Part shown: positions 2,099 to 59,755 of the stretch, in pieces
Layout of the letters: each line of letters starts with the position of its first letter
How positions within the stretch are numbered: the first letter of the stretch is position 1
Assembly: GCF_013315695.1 (NCBI RefSeq)
Contig: NZ_CP054353.1
Source: Escherichia coli
GTDB taxonomy: Bacteria > Pseudomonadota > Gammaproteobacteria > Enterobacterales > Enterobacteriaceae
Length of the DNA stretch: 64,000 nucleotides
Reading direction: 5' to 3' (one strand)
The notes under the pieces: generated by a model
Seen by the model: only the letters and a program-made list of their open reading frames with translations
Database searches by the model: none
What the model was told of the DNA's origin: nothing
Position numbers and translations under genes: made by a program

Positions 2099-3238
2099 AT
2101 GAGCGCGGGAAGCCCAAAATTCACCGTTCGCCGCATTGCGGCTTTGTCACTGGTTTCGCTATGGCTGGCAGGCTGTTCTGACACTTCAAATCCACCGGCC
2201 CCGGTCAGCTCCGTTAATGGCAATGCGCCTGCAAATACCAATTCTGGTATGTTGATTACGCCGCCGCCGAAAATGGGGACGACGTCTACAGCGCAGCAAC
2301 CGCAAATTCAGCCGGTACAGCAGCCACAAATTCAGGCCACTCAACAACCGCAAATCCAGCCGGTGCAGCCAGTAGCTCAGCAGCCGGTACAGATGGAAAA
2401 CGGACGCATCGTCTATAACCGTCAGTATGGGAACATTCCGAAAGGCAGTTATAGCGGCAGTACCTATACAGTGAAAAAAGGCGACACACTTTTCTATATC
2501 GCCTGGATTACTGGCAACGATTTCCGTGACCTTGCTCAGCGCAACAATATTCAGGCACCATACGCGCTGAACGTCGGTCAGACCTTACAGGTGGGGAATG
2601 CTTCCGGTACGCCAATCACTGGCGGAAATGCCATTACCCAGGCCGACGCAGCAGAGCAAGGAGTTGTGATCAAGCCTGCACAAAATTCCACCGTTGCTGT
2701 TGCTTCGCAACCGACAATTACGTATTCTGAGTCTTCGGGTGAACAGAGTGCTAACAAAATGTTGCCGAACAACAAGCCAACTGCGACCACGGTCACAGCG
2801 CCTGTAACGGTACCAACAGCAAGCACAACCGAGCCGACTGTCAGCAGTACATCAACCAGTACGCCTATCTCCACCTGGCGCTGGCCGACTGAGGGCAAAG
2901 TGATCGAAACCTTTGGCGCTTCTGAGGGGGGCAACAAGGGGATTGATATCGCAGGCAGCAAAGGACAGGCAATTATCGCGACTGCAGATGGCCGCGTTGT
3001 TTATGCCGGTAACGCGCTGCGCGGCTACGGTAATCTGATTATCATCAAACATAATGATGATTACCTGAGTGCCTACGCCCATAACGACACAATGCTGGTC
3101 CGGGAACAACAAGAAGTGAAGGCGGGGCAAAAAATAGCAACCATGGGTAGCACCGGAACCAGTTCAACACGCTTGCATTTTGAAATTCGTTACAAGGGGA
3201 AATCCGTAAACCCGCTGCGTTATTTGCCGCAGCGATAA
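2099..3238 (+). CDS. nlpD: lipoprotein NlpD (LysM and M23 peptidase domains)
   Basis: 379 aa; lipobox LAGCS; Pro/Gln-rich repeats; C-terminal M23 domain; lies upstream of rpoS. Confidence 0.9.
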
Positions 3239-3300
3239 ATCGGCGGAACCAGGCTTTTGCTTGAATGTTCCGTCAAGGGATCACGGGTAGGAGCCACCTT

Positions 3301-4293
3301 ATGAGTCAGAATACGCTGAAAGTTCATGATTTAAATGAAGATGCGGAATTTGATGAGAACGGAGTTGAGGTTTTTGACGAAAAGGCCTTAGTAGAAGAGG
3401 AACCCAGTGATAACGATTTGGCCGAAGAGGAACTGTTATCGCAGGGAGCCACACAGCGTGTGCTGGACGCGACTCAGCTTTACCTTGGTGAGATTGGTTA
3501 TTCACCACTGTTAACGGCCGAAGAAGAAGTTTATTTTGCGCGTCGCGCACTGCGTGGAGATGTTGCCTCTCGCCGCCGGATGATCGAGAGTAACTTGCGT
3601 CTGGTGGTAAAAATTGCCCGCCGTTATGGCAATCGTGGTCTGGCGTTGCTGGATCTTATCGAAGAGGGCAACCTGGGGCTGATCCGCGCGGTAGAGAAGT
3701 TTGACCCGGAACGTGGTTTCCGCTTCTCAACATACGCAACCTGGTGGATTCGCCAGACGATCGAACGGGCGATTATGAACCAAACCCGTACTATTCGTTT
3801 GCCGATTCACATCGTAAAGGAGCTGAACGTTTACCTGCGAACCGCACGCGAGTTGTCCCATAAACTGGACCATGAACCAAGTGCGGAAGAGATCGCAGAG
3901 CAACTGGATAAGCCAGTTGATGACGTCAGCCGTATGCTTCGTCTTAACGAGCGCATTACCTCGGTAGACACCCCGCTGGGTGGTGATTCCGAAAAAGCGT
4001 TGCTGGACATCCTGGCCGATGAAAAAGAGAACGGTCCGGAAGATACCACGCAAGATGACGATATGAAGCAGAGCATCGTCAAATGGCTGTTCGAGCTGAA
4101 CGCCAAACAGCGTGAAGTGCTGGCACGTCGATTCGGTTTGCTGGGGTACGAAGCGGCAACACTGGAAGATGTAGGTCGTGAAATTGGCCTCACCCGTGAA
4201 CGTGTTCGCCAGATTCAGGTTGAAGGCCTGCGCCGTTTGCGCGAAATCCTGCAAACGCAGGGGCTGAATATCGAAGCGCTGTTCCGCGAGTAA
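3301..4293 (+). CDS. rpoS: RNA polymerase sigma factor RpoS (sigma-38), intact
   Basis: 330 aa starting [17 protein letters not shown]; start taken at ATG 3301 rather than the upstream track start; codon 33 is GAG (Glu). Confidence 0.95.
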
Positions 4294-4310
4294 GTAAGCA
4301 TCTGTCATAA

Positions 4311-4344
4311 AGGCCAGTCTCTTATGAGGCTGGCCTTTTTCTTT
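4311..4344. terminator. Stem-loop plus T-run downstream of rpoS (likely bidirectional terminator)
   Basis: aggccagtctc..gaggctggcct stem followed by ttttt; lies between convergent rpoS and the MarR-type gene. Confidence 0.6.
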
Positions 4345-4413
4345 TGTATGGGGAGTTGGTGTGTTTCGTCGCCTGGATAAGACACGTCAGCGTCCCATCC
4401 GGCAATCAACATC

Positions 4414-4821
4414 CTATTTGCTCATCATCTTGCGCACCAGCTGCATAAACAGCTCCTGCTCTTCTCCACTCAAACGCCCCAAAAATTCCTCATCCACACT
4501 GTCGCCAATCGGTATCGCCGCAGCAAGTACCTTTTCTCCTTCGGCAGTCAGCCAGACAAAGCGTCGCCGCTTATCAGCGGCGTCATGTTCACGTCTGACT
4601 AAGCCACGATTTTCCATTCTTGCCAACATTTCTGCCAGCGTTGCTTTGGTGCTGACTGCTGCTTCTATCAGTGCCACCTGTTCGATACCAGGCTTATCAG
4701 CAATGGCGCGCATCACCGCGTACTGTGGTTTGGTCAGGTCAGGTAACTCGTGCTGCCAGCGGGCCGTATGCTGCTGAAAAAGCTGTCGTAACTGATGGAA
4801 CGCTTTATTTCGTAACGCCAT
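4414..4821 (-). CDS. MarR/SlyA-family transcriptional regulator
   Basis: 135 aa; winged-helix MarR-like sequence; divergent from the decarboxylase operon. Confidence 0.8.
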   Translation of the reverse strand: MALRNKAFHQLRQLFQQHTARWQHELPDLTKPQYAVMRAIADKPGIEQVALIEAAVSTKATLAEMLARMENRGLVRREHDAADKRRRFVWLTAEGEKVLAAAIPIGDSVDEEFLGRLSGEEQELFMQLVRKMMSK

Positions 4822-4936
4822 GTAAACTCCGGGCTAATTCTCTGTCGCTATCATAGCGGTTTTTCAGTGACGAAGAAGATGTTGTTACTTTTCAATCCTT
4901 GCCGCTGTGGAAATGAAGGAGTATGTTAATAATAAC

Positions 4937-4950
4937 GTTCGTATACGAAC
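4937..4950. promoter_or_regulatory. Perfect 14-bp palindrome gttcgtatacgaac, candidate operator
   Basis: Exact inverted repeat 18 bp upstream of the UbiX-like ATG, in the divergent intergenic region with the MarR gene. Confidence 0.4.
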
Positions 4951-4967
4951 AATTAAGAGAGTAAGCA

Positions 4968-5561
4968 ATGAAACTGATCGTCGGGATGACAGGGGCTACC
5001 GGTGCGCCTCTTGGTGTGGCATTACTGCAAGCGCTGCGGGAGATGCCGAATGTCGAGACTCATCTGGTGATGTCGACGTGGGCGAAAACCACCATTGAAC
5101 TGGAAACGCCTTACAGCGCTCGCGATGTTGCTGCCCTCGCAGACTTCAGCCATAACTCGGCGGATCAGGCGGCGACCATCTCCTCAGGTTCCTTTCGTAC
5201 CGACGGCATGATCGTTATTCCGTGCAGTATGAAAACGCTCGCCGGTATCCGTGCCGGTTACGCCGATGGCCTGGTAGGGCGCGCGGCGGACGTCGTGCTC
5301 AAAGAAGGCCGCAAACTGGTGCTGGTGCCGCGTGAAATGCCGCTTAGCACCATCCATCTCGAAAATATGCTCGCACTTTCGCGCATGGGCGTGGCGATGG
5401 TGCCGCCGATGCCTGCCTTTTATAACCATCCCGAAACGGTAGATGACATTGTCCAGCACGTGGTAGCCCGCGTGCTGGATCAATTTGGCCTCGAACATCC
5501 TCACGCCAGGCGCTGGCAAGGATTGTCGCAGACCCGGAATTTTTCTCAGGAGAATGAATAA
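4968..5561 (+). CDS. ecdB: UbiX/Pad1-family flavin prenyltransferase (decarboxylase subunit B)
   Basis: 197 aa; MKLIVGMTGATGAP flavoprotein motif typical of UbiX/Pad1; first gene of a three-gene operon; gene symbol recalled from O157-type annotations and not verified. Confidence 0.8.
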   Translation: MKLIVGMTGATGAPLGVALLQALREMPNVETHLVMSTWAKTTIELETPYSARDVAALADFSHNSADQAATISSGSFRTDGMIVIPCSMKTLAGIRAGYADGLVGRAADVVLKEGRKLVLVPREMPLSTIHLENMLALSRMGVAMVPPMPAFYNHPETVDDIVQHVVARVLDQFGLEHPHARRWQGLSQTRNFSQENE

Positions 5562-6988
5562 TGGCATTTGATGATTTACGCAGCTTTTTACAGGCGCTCG
5601 ACGACCATGGGCAATTGCTGAAAATCAGCGAAGAGGTGAACGCAGAACCGGATCTGGCAGCCGCAGCCAACGCCACCGGGCGTATCGGCGACGGCGCGCC
5701 AGCGCTGTGGTTTGATAATATTCGCGGCTTTACCGATGCCCGCGTGGCGATGAACACCATCGGTTCCTGGCAGAACCACGCGATTTCCCTCGGCCTGCCG
5801 CCAAATACCCCGGTTAAAAAACAGATCGATGAGTTTATCCGCCGCTGGGACAACTTCCCGATTGCCCCGGAACGCCGAGCCAATCCAGCCTGGGCGCAGA
5901 ACACCGTCGATGGAGACGAGATCAACCTGTTCGATATCCTGCCGCTGTTTCGTTTAAACGATGGCGATGGCGGTTTCTATCTCGACAAAGCGTGCGTGGT
6001 TTCCCGCGATCCGCTTGATCCGGATAACTTCGGCAAGCAGAACGTCGGTATCTACCGCATGGAAGTGAAGGGCAAACGTAAGCTCGGCCTGCAACCGGTG
6101 CCGATGCACGATATCGCCCTGCATCTGCATAAAGCGGAAGAGCGCGGTGAAGATCTGCCGATTGCGATCACCCTCGGTAACGATCCGATCATCACGCTGA
6201 TGGGGGCCACGCCGCTGAAATATGATCAGTCCGAGTACGAAATGGCAGGCGCGCTGCGTGAAAGCCCGTACCCGATCGCCACCGCCCCGCTGACTGGTTT
6301 TGATGTGCCGTGGGGTTCAGAAGTGATCCTCGAAGGGGTTATCGAAAGTCGTAAACGTGAGATCGAAGGGCCGTTCGGTGAGTTTACCGGCCACTACTCC
6401 GGTGGGCGCAACATGACCGTGGTGCGCATCGATAAAGTCTCTTACCGCACGAAACCGATTTTCGAATCGCTGTACCTCGGCATGCCGTGGACGGAAATCG
6501 ACTATCTGATGGGGCCAGCCACCTGCGTGCCGCTGTATCAGCAACTGAAAGCCGAGTTCCCGGAAGTGCAGGCGGTGAACGCCATGTACACCCACGGCCT
6601 GCTGGCGATTATCTCCACCAAAAAACGCTACGGTGGCTTTGCCCGCGCGGTGGGCCTGCGTGCGATGACCACGCCGCACGGTCTGGGCTATGTGAAGATG
6701 GTGATTATGGTCGATGAAGACGTTGATCCGTTCAACCTGCCGCAGGTGATGTGGGCGCTCTCCTCGAAAGTGAACCCGGCAGGGGATTTGGTGCAGTTGC
6801 CGAATATGTCCGTGCTGGAACTCGACCCAGGCTCAAGCCCGGCGGGGATCACCGACAAGCTGATTATCGACGCCACCACGCCTGTCGCCCCGGACAACCG
6901 TGGTCACTACAGTCAGCCGGTGGTGGATTTACCGGAAACCAAAGCCTGGGCTGAAAAACTGACCGCTATGCTGGCCGCACGTCAATAA
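5561..6988 (+). CDS. ecdC: UbiD-family (prenyl-FMN dependent) aromatic acid decarboxylase subunit C
   Basis: 475 aa; UbiD-like length and sequence; start overlaps the upstream stop (translational coupling). Confidence 0.8.
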   Translation: MAFDDLRSFLQALDDHGQLLKISEEVNAEPDLAAAANATGRIGDGAPALWFDNIRGFTDARVAMNTIGSWQNHAISLGLPPNTPVKKQIDEFIRRWDNFPIAPERRANPAWAQNTVDGDEINLFDILPLFRLNDGDGGFYLDKACVVSRDPLDPDNFGKQNVGIYRMEVKGKRKLGLQPVPMHDIALHLHKAEERGEDLPIAITLGNDPIITLMGATPLKYDQSEYEMAGALRESPYPIATAPLTGFDVPWGSEVILEGVIESRKREIEGPFGEFTGHYSGGRNMTVVRIDKVSYRTKPIFESLYLGMPWTEIDYLMGPATCVPLYQQLKAEFPEVQAVNAMYTHGLLAIISTKKRYGGFARAVGLRAMTTPHGLGYVKMVIMVDEDVDPFNLPQVMWALSSKVNPAGDLVQLPNMSVLELDPGSSPAGITDKLIIDATTPVAPDNRGHYSQPVVDLPETKAWAEKLTAMLAARQ

Positions 6989-6998
6989 GGAGAACAAG

Positions 6999-7235
6999 AT
7001 GATTTGTCCACGTTGTGCTGATGAACAGATTGAAGTGATGGCGAAATCGCCGGTAAAAGATGTCTGGACGGTCTACCAGTGCCAGCATTGCCTCTATACC
7101 TGGCGCGATACCGAACCGCTGCGCCGCACCAGCCGCGAACATTATCCCGAAGCGTTCCGCATGACGCAGAAAGATATTGATGACGCGCCGATGGTGCCGA
7201 GCATCCCGCCGCTGCTGGCGGAAGGTAAGCGCTAA
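6999..7235 (+). CDS. ecdD: small decarboxylase subunit D (zinc-ribbon protein)
   Basis: 78 aa; CPRC...CQHC pair of CxxC motifs; RBS aggagaacaag upstream; third gene of the operon. Confidence 0.7.
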   Translation: MICPRCADEQIEVMAKSPVKDVWTVYQCQHCLYTWRDTEPLRRTSREHYPEAFRMTQKDIDDAPMVPSIPPLLAEGKR

Positions 7236-17789: not shown

Positions 17790-19868
17790 TTAAATCAATG
17801 CCGATTTATCAATTCCCAGTCGCTTCATCCGTGACAGCAGAGTCGTGCGTTTCAGCCCCAGACGTTGCGCAGCGCCTTTAGGCCCGGCAACCACGCCGTT
17901 TGTTTCTTTCAGCACGCGAACAATCAACTGATATTCATCTTCGCCCTCCTGGGCGACAACCGTTGCGGCAGGCGGCGTTTCAGGTTCTGGTAAAGCAATA
18001 TCTGGCAATGACAGCTGCAGCACGTTGCCGCGTGTTAGCAATACCGCGCGCTCGATGACGTTTTCCAGCTCACGCACGTTGCCCGGCCATTCCATGTTGC
18101 TCAGGATGCGCAGCGTCTCGGCAGGAATGCTGTCGATATTGCGCCCCAGACGACGGGCAATTTTGAAGGTAAAGGCTTTCGCCAGCAGCGGAATATCTTC
18201 CGGACGCTCGCGTAGTGGCGGCAGGTGGATCGGGAATACGTTCAGGCGGTAATAGAGATCACTACGGAACTCTCGGTCGGCGACCATTTTTTTCAGATCG
18301 CGGTTAGTCGCGGCAATTAAACGTACGTCCGTCTGAATGATTTTGTTGCTGCCGAGGCGTTCAAACTCCTGTTCCTGTAATACACGCAGCAACTTCGGCT
18401 GTAACTCCAGCGGCATATCGCCCACTTCGTCGAGGAACAGGGAGCTTTTATCCGCCAGTTCAAAACGACCAATGCGCTGGGCGCTGGCACCGGTAAAAGC
18501 CCCACGCTCATGACCAAACAGATCGCTCTCCAGCAATCCGGCAGGCATCGCCGCGCAGTTCATTTTTACCATGCGGCGATTATTACGCCCACTGAGATTA
18601 TGGATAGCACGGGCAATCAGCTCTTTACCCGTGCCAGTTTCACCGAGGATCAGCACGGTACTGTCACTTTGCGCCACCATTTCAACTTGTTTAAGCACGC
18701 TGTACATGGCTTCGCTGCGGCCAATAATCTCGCCAAATTCACTATCAACATTGTTGAGCTGCTCGGTCAGGGCGAGGTTTTCATCAACCAGCCGTTCTTT
18801 CAGACGATGGATTTCCTGATAGGCGAGGGCGTTATCGACAGCGATTGCCACACGTTCGGCAATCTGGCGCAGTAAATTCAGATTGGTAGTGGTAAACACT
18901 TTCTCTTCGCATTGCGCCAGTTTCAGCACGCCCAGCATGGTGTCGCCAGACATCAGCGGTAACAGGCACAAGGTTTGAATCTGGTTGCCCCAGGTGTCGA
19001 ACAACATGCGTTCATAGGGGGCTAAATCGTCCCGCTCGTGGAGATTAATCAACAGCATCTCTTTACTTTTGAAGACGCGTTCGGTGAGGGTTCCGGCTTC
19101 ATCGACTTCGCTCTGTTCGTGGGCGGGATGCTGTTTATCAAGATAGTGAGTGGAGTAGATGTTGAGTTTGTTTTTACGGTGGCTGCGTAAGACGATGCTG
19201 ATATCGTCAATGTCGAAGTAGTAATGGATTTCTTTGGCGACTTCGCTGACCAGTTCGTCCATATCCAGGCGGGAAAGCACCGCGTTGGTAATGGCAACCA
19301 GGATGCGGAAGTTATCGCGCTCCCGGCATAACAACTCATAGTCGACATTGTTAACGACGCGGCTCTGGATTTGTTCGGTGACGACCGAAACGATCTGCGT
19401 AAATGTTTGCAGACGATTGAACTCTTTTTCGCTCCAGGGGCGATCGTCATAACGAATAAATTCACAGCCACCAAAAATATGCCCTTCCGCCGCCAGTGGC
19501 ATCAGGCAATAGTGACCAAATTTGGGGTATAGTCCACCTGCGGCCAGCTGCGGCCAGGTTTCACAAAATTCTTCGTAACTGCAATGCAGCGTATCAGGGC
19601 GCGACAAAATGCTGCGTACCGGACCGTGTGCCAGAACAGTTTCGTCTTCATATTTAATGGGGGTGTCTTTTTCACGCGACGCGTAATAAGACGCACGTTG
19701 AGTCTGCGCTTGCCACAACACAATAGCCGCGTTGTCGGCGAGCGCAGAACGCTTTACCAGTTGCGAAAGAGCCTCACACAGCGAGGCCAGATCGGGCTGC
19801 TGCAATAGTGTCCGAGTGATGTCGAACAACCCTTGTTGTCCGAGATCACTCATCGGTGTATATGACAT
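17790..19868 (-). CDS. fhlA: formate hydrogenlyase transcriptional activator (sigma-54 enhancer-binding protein)
   Basis: 692 aa starting MSYTPMSDLGQQGLF; GAF domains, AAA+ core with GETGTGKE and GAFTGA, C-terminal HTH. Confidence 0.95.
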   Translation of the reverse strand: MSYTPMSDLGQQGLFDITRTLLQQPDLASLCEALSQLVKRSALADNAAIVLWQAQTQRASYYASREKDTPIKYEDETVLAHGPVRSILSRPDTLHCSYEEFCETWPQLAAGGLYPKFGHYCLMPLAAEGHIFGGCEFIRYDDRPWSEKEFNRLQTFTQIVSVVTEQIQSRVVNNVDYELLCRERDNFRILVAITNAVLSRLDMDELVSEVAKEIHYYFDIDDISIVLRSHRKNKLNIYSTHYLDKQHPAHEQSEVDEAGTLTERVFKSKEMLLINLHERDDLAPYERMLFDTWGNQIQTLCLLPLMSGDTMLGVLKLAQCEEKVFTTTNLNLLRQIAERVAIAVDNALAYQEIHRLKERLVDENLALTEQLNNVDSEFGEIIGRSEAMYSVLKQVEMVAQSDSTVLILGETGTGKELIARAIHNLSGRNNRRMVKMNCAAMPAGLLESDLFGHERGAFTGASAQRIGRFELADKSSLFLDEVGDMPLELQPKLLRVLQEQEFERLGSNKIIQTDVRLIAATNRDLKKMVADREFRSDLYYRLNVFPIHLPPLRERPEDIPLLAKAFTFKIARRLGRNIDSIPAETLRILSNMEWPGNVRELENVIERAVLLTRGNVLQLSLPDIALPEPETPPAATVVAQEGEDEYQLIVRVLKETNGVVAGPKGAAQRLGLKRTTLLSRMKRLGIDKSALI

Positions 19869-31674: not shown

Positions 31675-32428
31675 GTGCGCTTTTTATTGAGCTTAGTGCT
31701 GCCTGCACAGGCCACCAGCTTTACCGAATATCTGCCAATGAGTGACAGCGAATACGCGCAAAAGCGGGCGCTGAAACCTCTCTTAAACATGCCTTATGAT
31801 GCCGAGCAAACCTGGCATTTTAGAAAAGTGGGCGTTGCTGGCGTGACGCTTGAAAAGATGCCAAATGATGATAGTGAATGGCAATTGAACGGTAAAGATC
31901 GCGCCGGTAAATCCTGGTCTGTGCCTGTGGGGGGGGCTGCAAAATATGGCGGGTAATGCGCAACTTTACCGTGCCGATCTTGATCGTAACGGCATTCAGG
32001 ATCTGGTTATCTGGCGGGGTATTTCAGGAAATGGTCTGGCACCTAACGCGTTTTTGATTCTGATGACCTTTAATCAGCAAGGTCGCCCGTGTGTTTTTCA
32101 GTCCGATGGTTTTTATAGCGCAAGTGAAACTGGCATTGATGATTTGCTGGATTTACAAAGGAATGGTCACACGCAATTGCTGGATATGCAGTTTGATTCC
32201 GGTTACTGGATAACCAGTCTGTATCAGGTAAAAGACGCCAAATGGCAGCGTGTTCACGGCTGGTTTGGCAAGTTAAGCTATCCCGCGCTCACGCGTTTTA
32301 CTTATACCCCCAACCGTAAACTCGTCCTCAAACCCATCGCCGGGCGCGACCCGCAAACGGAAGATCTGGCACTGACGCAGAGTTGCTTGATAAAGGGGGA
32401 TGTTCTTGATGGGGTGAACCAGCTCTGA
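31675..32428 (+). pseudogene. Secreted-protein gene with DLxRNG repeats, split by a +1 frameshift in a G8 tract (or phase-variable)
   Basis: ORFs 31675..31956 and 31946..32428 overlap in adjacent frames; both frames are open across 31889..31956, which contains the G8 run 31929..31936; deleting one G fuses them into one ~248-aa ORF with a signal-peptide-like N-terminus. Confidence 0.5.
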
Positions 32429-56205: not shown

Positions 56206-56298
56206 GGTGAGGTGGCCGAGAGGCTGAAGGCGCTCCCCTGCTAAGGGAGTATGCGGTCAAAAGCTGCATCCGGGGTTCGAATCCCCGCCTCACCGCCA
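56206..56298 (+). tRNA. serV: tRNA-Ser (GCU)
   Basis: 93-nt sequence with long variable arm, anticodon loop cuGCUaa, 3' CCA encoded. Confidence 0.9.
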
Positions 56299-56301
56299 TT
56301 T

Positions 56302-56378
56302 GCATCCGTAGCTCAGCTGGATAGAGTACTCGGCTACGAACCGAGCGGTCGGAGGTTCGAATCCTCCCGGATGCACCA
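56302..56378 (+). tRNA. argV: tRNA-Arg (ACG), copy 1
   Basis: 77 nt gcatccgtagctcagctggatagagtactcggctACGaaccgag...gatgcacca; symbol assignment among the four copies is by K-12 order only. Confidence 0.9.
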
Positions 56379-56440
56379 TCTCTTACTTGATATGGCTTTA
56401 GTAGCGGTATCAATATCAGCAGTAAAATAAATTTCCCGAT

Positions 56441-56517
56441 GCATCCGTAGCTCAGCTGGATAGAGTACTCGGCTACGAACCGAGCGGTCGGAGGTTCGAA
56501 TCCTCCCGGATGCACCA
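56441..56517 (+). tRNA. argY: tRNA-Arg (ACG), copy 2
   Basis: Identical 77-nt tRNA; 139-bp repeat period. Confidence 0.9.
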
Positions 56518-56579
56518 TCTCTTACTTGATATGGCTTTAGTAGCGGTATCAATATCAGCAGTAAAATAAATTTCCCGAT

Positions 56580-56656
56580 GCATCCGTAGCTCAGCTGGAT
56601 AGAGTACTCGGCTACGAACCGAGCGGTCGGAGGTTCGAATCCTCCCGGATGCACCA
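56580..56656 (+). tRNA. argZ: tRNA-Arg (ACG), copy 3
   Basis: Identical 77-nt tRNA; identical 62-bp spacer. Confidence 0.9.
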
Positions 56657-56718
56657 TCTCTTACTTGATATGGCTTTAGTAGCGGTATCAATATCAGCAG
56701 TAAAATAAATTTCCCGAT

Positions 56719-56795
56719 GCATCCGTAGCTCAGCTGGATAGAGTACTCGGCTACGAACCGAGCGGTCGGAGGTTCGAATCCTCCCGGATGCACCA
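56719..56795 (+). tRNA. argQ: tRNA-Arg (ACG), copy 4
   Basis: Identical 77-nt tRNA. Confidence 0.9.
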
Positions 56796-59682: not shown

Positions 59683-59755
59683 AAAAAGGCCACTCGTGAG
59701 TGGCCAAAATTTCATCTCTGAATTCAGGGATGATGATAACAAATGCGCGTCTTTC
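59683..59755 (-). ncRNA. micA: MicA (SraD) Hfq-dependent sRNA
   Basis: Minus strand reads gaaagacgcgcatttgttatcatcatccctgaattcagagatgaaattttggccactcacgagtggccttttt, the MicA sequence as I recall it, between gshA and luxS. Confidence 0.85.

Follow-up and report, generated by a model that had tools for sequence, protein, structure and literature searches.

A predicted species-consensus sigma-S encoded by an intact, Glu-33 rpoS allele in a non-K-12 Escherichia coli

Introduction

The general stress regulon is directed by sigma-S, an alternative sigma factor that is encoded by rpoS and competes for core RNA polymerase. Codon 33 of the gene is variable in laboratory strains: stocks of K-12 carry TAG, CAG, TAT or GAG at this position (PMC2700278), and GAG is the usual codon in isolates outside K-12 (PMC2700278; PMC1852560). 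All of the VTEC strains in one survey carried GAG, and low catalase activity was limited to a strain with a truncated RpoS (PMC2700278). Mutants of rpoS also arise readily during laboratory storage (PMC7527412).

Two forms of the K-12 gene provide the nearest points of reference for the locus described here. The MG1655 form (b2741, NP_417221.1) encodes a sigma-S with glutamine at residue 33 (33Q). The rpoS(Am) form carries TAG at the same codon of the same gene and is found in W3110, C600, J53, NCM3722 and RP437. A first-pass annotation of a 64,000-nucleotide stretch of E. coli DNA (the window) had read its rpoS as intact, with GAG (Glu) at codon 33, and had called the allele functional and of non-K-12 type, in a locus that often accumulates loss-of-function mutations. 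We compared this allele, its flanking expression signals and its strain background with K-12 and with 5,426 complete E. coli genomes.

Results

The rpoS reading frame is open and carries GAG at codon 33

The rpoS coding sequence for sigma-S (sigma-38) spans window positions 3301..4293 on the + strand. As read from the sequence, it runs from an ATG at 3301 to a TAA at 4291-4293, and its 330 codons are open from end to end. Translation and alignment of the full 330-codon frame revealed no frameshift, internal stop or IS insertion, so the first-pass description of a fully open 330-aa frame stands; a frameshift or nonsense mutation elsewhere in the gene, which that annotation had named as the finding that would overturn its reading, was searched for and none lies in the frame. 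Codon 33, the polymorphic K-12 site, is located at 3397..3399 (+ strand; 3301+96), and direct reading gives GAG (Glu), as had been claimed.

A program listing of open reading frames assigns a 342-aa frame to the locus, initiated from an in-frame ATG at 3265, upstream of the rpoS ATG. We rejected this ATG as the rpoS start: a Shine-Dalgarno sequence, GGAG, read directly at 3290..3293 on the + strand, lies 7 nt upstream of the 3301 ATG, and all annotated and solved RpoS proteins open with MSQNTLKV. The 330-aa product (MSQNTLKV...) is the form annotated in MG1655 and in all other genomes fetched.

The encoded protein is identical to the E. coli consensus

The window protein matches the RpoS equivalog model NCBIfam NF004207 at 604.6 bits against a cut-off of 394, covering positions 1-329 of 329, and TIGR02394 at 480.7 against a cut-off of 378.7. 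Pfam identifies sigma-70 regions 1.2, 2, 3 and 4, all of them present and uninterrupted, with every match above its gathering score (Sigma70_r1_2, 56-88; r2, 94-163; r3, 174-248; r4, 262-315). As Pfam places region 1.2 at residues 56-88, residue 33 lies N-terminal to it, within the acidic N-terminal segment.

Over all 330 residues, the window RpoS is identical to RefSeq WP_000081550.1, the rpoS product annotated in seven fetched genomes (MS 21-1, MSB1_4I, O157:H7, ST131 ZH193, BL21-Gold, SMS-3-5 and CFSAN061770), and direct translation of the gene from O157:H7, ST131 ZH193, BL21-Gold, SMS-3-5 and CFSAN061770 confirms the identity to the window. Exactly this protein is recorded for at least 1,000 contigs. 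Solved E. coli sigma-S chains (6kj6, 5ipl and 6omf) match residues 1-330 with E-values of about 1e-210, and in the one alignment printed, that to 6kj6, the sole mismatch is Q33 in the structure.

Five independently assembled genomes have an annotated rpoS whose 993 nt are 100% identical to those of the window gene. Compared with lineages that carry the consensus RpoS (O157:H7, ST131, BL21 and SMS-3-5), the window shows no protein difference and the same nlpD-rpoS operon context, and the number of synonymous nucleotide differences ranges from 3 to 27, depending on the lineage. The rpoS of CFSAN061770, which falls in a divergent lineage (340 of the 5,426 complete genomes lie in the 95-99% rpoS identity band), has 97.3% DNA identity to the window, and all of its nucleotide differences (27/27) are silent. 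Such complete silence shows very strong purifying selection on sigma-S, its acidic N-terminus included. By its predicted translation, the window encodes the species-consensus sigma-S, a protein under strong purifying selection.

Comparison with the K-12 alleles

Alignment of the window gene with rpoS of MG1655 (NC_000913.3) is gapless and reveals seven nucleotide differences. Six of these, in codons 55, 88, 118, 154, 183 and 188, are synonymous; the one that alters the protein is in codon 33, which is GAG (Glu) in the window and CAG (Gln) in MG1655. The two proteins are thus of equal length and match at 329/330 residues. Alignment with reference rpoS alleles, the check that the first-pass annotation had proposed, therefore returns a protein equal to the consensus and different from that of MG1655 at residue 33 alone.

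The frame of the window is open at the codon where rpoS(Am) strains carry the amber. In a W3110 derivative (W3110-P) codon 33 is TAG, and PGAP annotates a pseudogene interrupted by an internal stop. A locus of K-12 type would be expected to carry TAG, CAG or TAT at codon 33 and to have rpoS adjoining ygbN; the window carries GAG, and a 2,895-bp block separates the two genes.

Codon 33 among complete E. coli genomes

To place the GAG codon in the species, we searched 5,426 complete E. coli genomes with exact 31-mers centred on codon 33, queried for GAG, CAG and TAG. A megablast query of 31 nt requires an exact match of 28 nt, and each such 28-mer spans the centred codon. GAG with the flanks of the window is found in 4,839/5,426 genomes, and GAG in a second flanking haplotype, which differs by two synonymous neighbour SNPs, is found in another 203/5,426, giving a total for GAG of at least 5,042/5,426 (93%). 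CAG is found in 174/5,426 genomes and TAG in 121/5,426. About 290 genomes fall outside the first three 31-mers, and the second GAG haplotype explains 203 of them; the roughly 89 that lie outside all four 31-mers include 12 without an rpoS match and 14 with less than 80% coverage.

An even sample of the CAG genomes, drawn from the ranking, consists almost entirely of strains that resemble K-12 derivatives (MG1655, MC4100, DH10B, MC1061, DHB4 and Keio strains). The same is true of the sampled TAG genomes, which comprise W3110, C600/EC600, J53, NCM3722 and RP437 together with transconjugants built in those hosts. These counts identify GAG as the state of at least 93% of the genomes and of essentially all of those outside K-12. 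The earlier statements that K-12 lineages carry amber or suppressor-type alleles at codon 33 (TAG, n = 121; CAG, n = 174) and that many natural isolates have Glu-33 both agree with the census, the latter in line with published surveys (PMC2700278; PMC1852560). Chance is the wrong null for the GAG codon, which is one codon of a strongly conserved gene and whose 31-mer recurs in 4,839 of the 5,426 genomes.

Damaged alleles of rpoS do occur elsewhere. Among 60 records sampled at even spacing, four have an rpoS of 992 or 994 nt whose annotation gives a frameshift (stops at residues 37, 64, 131 and 294), and one is an engineered deletion. The view of the first-pass annotation that lesions often accumulate at this locus is thus a fair one (4/60 sampled records frameshifted), yet intact alleles form the clear majority.

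Operon context and expression signals

The rpoS gene lies directly downstream of nlpD in the order surE-pcm-nlpD-rpoS, according to the open reading frames and the annotation of collinear genomes. In its 379-aa form, nlpD occupies 2099..3238 on the + strand and contains the rpoS promoter (PrpoS), and the NlpD protein is identical to that of K-12. The start of nlpD differs by annotation alone: the K-12 record gives 379 aa from the ATG at 2099, PGAP gives 364 aa from 2144 in the relatives of the window, and the underlying DNA does not differ.

Over its final 161 nt (window 3140-3300), ribosome binding site included, the rpoS leader is identical to that of MG1655; this stretch presumably contains the sRNA-pairing and inhibitory-hairpin region as well. 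Transcription of rpoS has been mapped to a start site 567 nt upstream of the start codon (PMC10948607), which places the predicted 5′ leader, transcribed from the promoter within nlpD, at 2734..3300 on the + strand (567 nt). Relative to MG1655 the leader shows four differences, at −318, −294, −183 and −162, all of them silent in nlpD.

A consensus promoter scan of positions 2600-4900 returned no calls, PrpoS included; we therefore placed the putative core promoter from the published −567 start and a reading of the hexamers by eye. This gives a candidate −35 element, TTGCTT, at 2700-2705, a 17-nt spacer and a candidate −10 element, TATTCT, at 2723-2728 (PrpoS, 2700..2728, + strand). Position 2704, within the putative −35 hexamer, is T in the window and G in K-12; the change is synonymous in nlpD and keeps the match to the −35 consensus at 3/6. 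The 31-mer with the T variant is found in 325/5,426 genomes (about 6%), among them SMS-3-5 (phylogroup-F-like).

Downstream of the gene, a terminator scan identified the rpoS intrinsic terminator at 4309..4348 on the + strand, with a 13-bp stem, a 4-nt loop and a T-rich tail. Its stem equals that of K-12, and the differences are confined to the loop (4322-4325) and to position 4308. A scan of the whole window with Rfam at gathering thresholds detected tRNAs and MicA only, with no match in the rpoS leader. Because the ribosome binding site, the proximal leader and the terminator stem match those of K-12, in a normal operon context, the source strain most likely expresses an active sigma-S from this gene.

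Strain background and the block downstream of rpoS

Alignment with MG1655 stops at 4339/4340 and restarts at 7235, delimiting a block of 2,895 bp (4340..7234) between rpoS and ygbN that is absent from K-12. The block encodes a MarR-family regulator (4414-4821, − strand) and subunits of a hydroxyarylic acid decarboxylase of the VdcB/C/D type (4968-5561, 5561-6988 and 6999-7235, + strand; NCBIfam VdcB, VdcC and VdcD, all above cut-offs). It is present in 2,417/5,426 complete E. coli genomes (45%), and we take it to be the known long form of the variable rpoS-mutS region of E. coli. In this polymorphic region the window thus has the long form, in which a MarR/SlyA-like regulator accompanies a UbiX/UbiD-type decarboxylase of three subunits, whereas K-12 has the short form; MG1655 shares the proximal leader and the terminator stem of the window and lacks the MarR/VdcBCD block.

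Absence of this 2.9-kb block from K-12 confirms a non-K-12 background for the window. The stretch from surE to rpoS is about 1% diverged from K-12. Across its whole length the window is collinear with MS 21-1 (99.9% identity), and its first 50 kb differ at three positions from MSB1_4I (NZ_LR898874.1), which was isolated in Australia from a human rectal swab. The close lineage of the window comprises five genomes of the collection, and the next best reaches 98.2%; for rpoS itself, the nearest other sequences, at 99.7%, are those of SMS-3-5 and ST648-type strains. From this comparison the source strain clearly belongs to natural E. coli outside K-12, and the six synonymous differences from MG1655 together with the downstream insert uphold the assignment of its rpoS to a non-K-12 allele.

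Other features of the window

Between hycI and ascB, a hypothetical gene is split by a run of eight G residues (31929-31936) into two open reading frames, 31675..31956 and 31946..32428, on the + strand. At the same site MSB1_4I has seven G residues and an intact 250-aa CDS (WP_001571792.1), and this is one of the three differences between the two sequences in 50 kb. The run of eight reflects either a true frameshift by slippage or an error in sequencing the homopolymer. The gene for the formate hydrogenlyase activator, fhlA (labelled 'flhA' by PGAP; 17790-19868, − strand), is intact in the window and in MSB1_4I; in MS 21-1 it is a frameshifted pseudogene with a 10-bp deletion in the region of window positions 19538-19547.

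A tRNA cluster at 56206-56792 on the + strand consists of one long tRNA (annotated tRNA-Ser in MS 21-1) and, after it, four near-identical tRNA-Arg genes repeated in tandem every 139 bp; its spacers differ from those of MS 21-1 by a few SNPs and a 2-bp indel. The MicA sRNA is encoded near luxS at 59684-59755 on the − strand (83.9 bits). Both the tRNA cluster and MicA are normal features of E. coli.

Discussion

We favor the reading, with a probability of about 0.93, that the window contains the ordinary wild-type rpoS of a non-K-12 E. coli, which would produce the species-consensus sigma-S with Glu-33. Under this reading GAG at codon 33 would be the ancestral, species-wide state, and TAG, CAG and similar alleles would be peculiarities of the K-12 laboratory lineage. 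The protein would bind core RNA polymerase through regions 1.2 to 4 and direct the general stress and stationary-phase regulon. Nothing in the sequence of the window departs from the reference sigma-S. To call the allele functional, as the first-pass annotation did, is a reasonable judgment from sequence, since the predicted protein is identical to the species-consensus WP_000081550.1: no substitution distinguishes it from an allele whose activity has been demonstrated, as present in O157:H7.

An open frame may nevertheless be accompanied by attenuated RpoS activity, whether through the SNP in the −35 region, the leader polymorphisms or unlinked regulators. Some observations are compatible with this: position 2704 falls in the putative −35 hexamer, and four leader SNPs distinguish the window from K-12. 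Sigma-S activity differs among isolates that are all 33E (PMC1852560), and both its levels and its activity differ among environmental isolates (PMC7527412). Several genes that set the level or activity of sigma-S, namely rssB, crl, hfq, those for the sRNAs DsrA, RprA and ArcZ, and those for the anti-adaptors, lie outside the window. However, all of the upstream differences are silent lineage polymorphisms, the variant at 2704 is common to 325 genomes that include SMS-3-5, and the proximal 161 nt of the leader, with the ribosome binding site, equal those of K-12. With no sign of attenuation within the window, we consider this explanation unlikely. A separate reading, in which the 2704 variant in combination with the 33E protein measurably shifts sigma-S expression in the lineage, is slightly more doubtful still; if true, the effect at 2704 would represent a natural variant of the general stress response that is cis-regulatory and not coding.

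Two further explanations concern the origin of the open frame itself. An assembly artefact, such as an indel collapsed in assembly or rpoS mutants mixed into the population, may mask a lesion. The difference of one G in the homopolymer at 31929-31936 between the window (G8) and its nearest relative (G7) makes an indel error or slippage conceivable, and rpoS mutants arise readily in laboratory storage (PMC7527412). Since five independent assemblies give the same 993 nt of rpoS at 100% identity, an artefact is nonetheless highly improbable. The least probable account is that GAG arose in a descendant of K-12 as a secondary pseudo-revertant of the K-12-type amber codon. GAG is indeed among the codon-33 alleles reported for K-12 stocks (PMC2700278), but the background of the window diverges from K-12, with six synonymous differences in rpoS, about 1% divergence from surE to rpoS and the 2.9-kb insert, and its first 50 kb are only three positions from a human rectal isolate. 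GAG is also found in phylogenetically distant lineages, one of them with an rpoS of 97.3% DNA identity. The divergent background effectively refutes descent from a K-12 amber allele.

The ordinary wild-type reading matters only for routine annotation. An intact Glu-33 rpoS is the species default, already known and well described, and the census updates an old observation: of 5,426 complete genomes, about 93% have GAG, and the sampled CAG and TAG alleles are almost entirely those of K-12 derivatives. The source strain would be recorded as having a wild-type general-stress sigma factor and not an attenuated allele of the kind found in laboratory stocks and some isolates. With a wild-type rpoS, the sigma-S-dependent phenotypes of stress resistance, biofilm formation and virulence would be expected to be intact.
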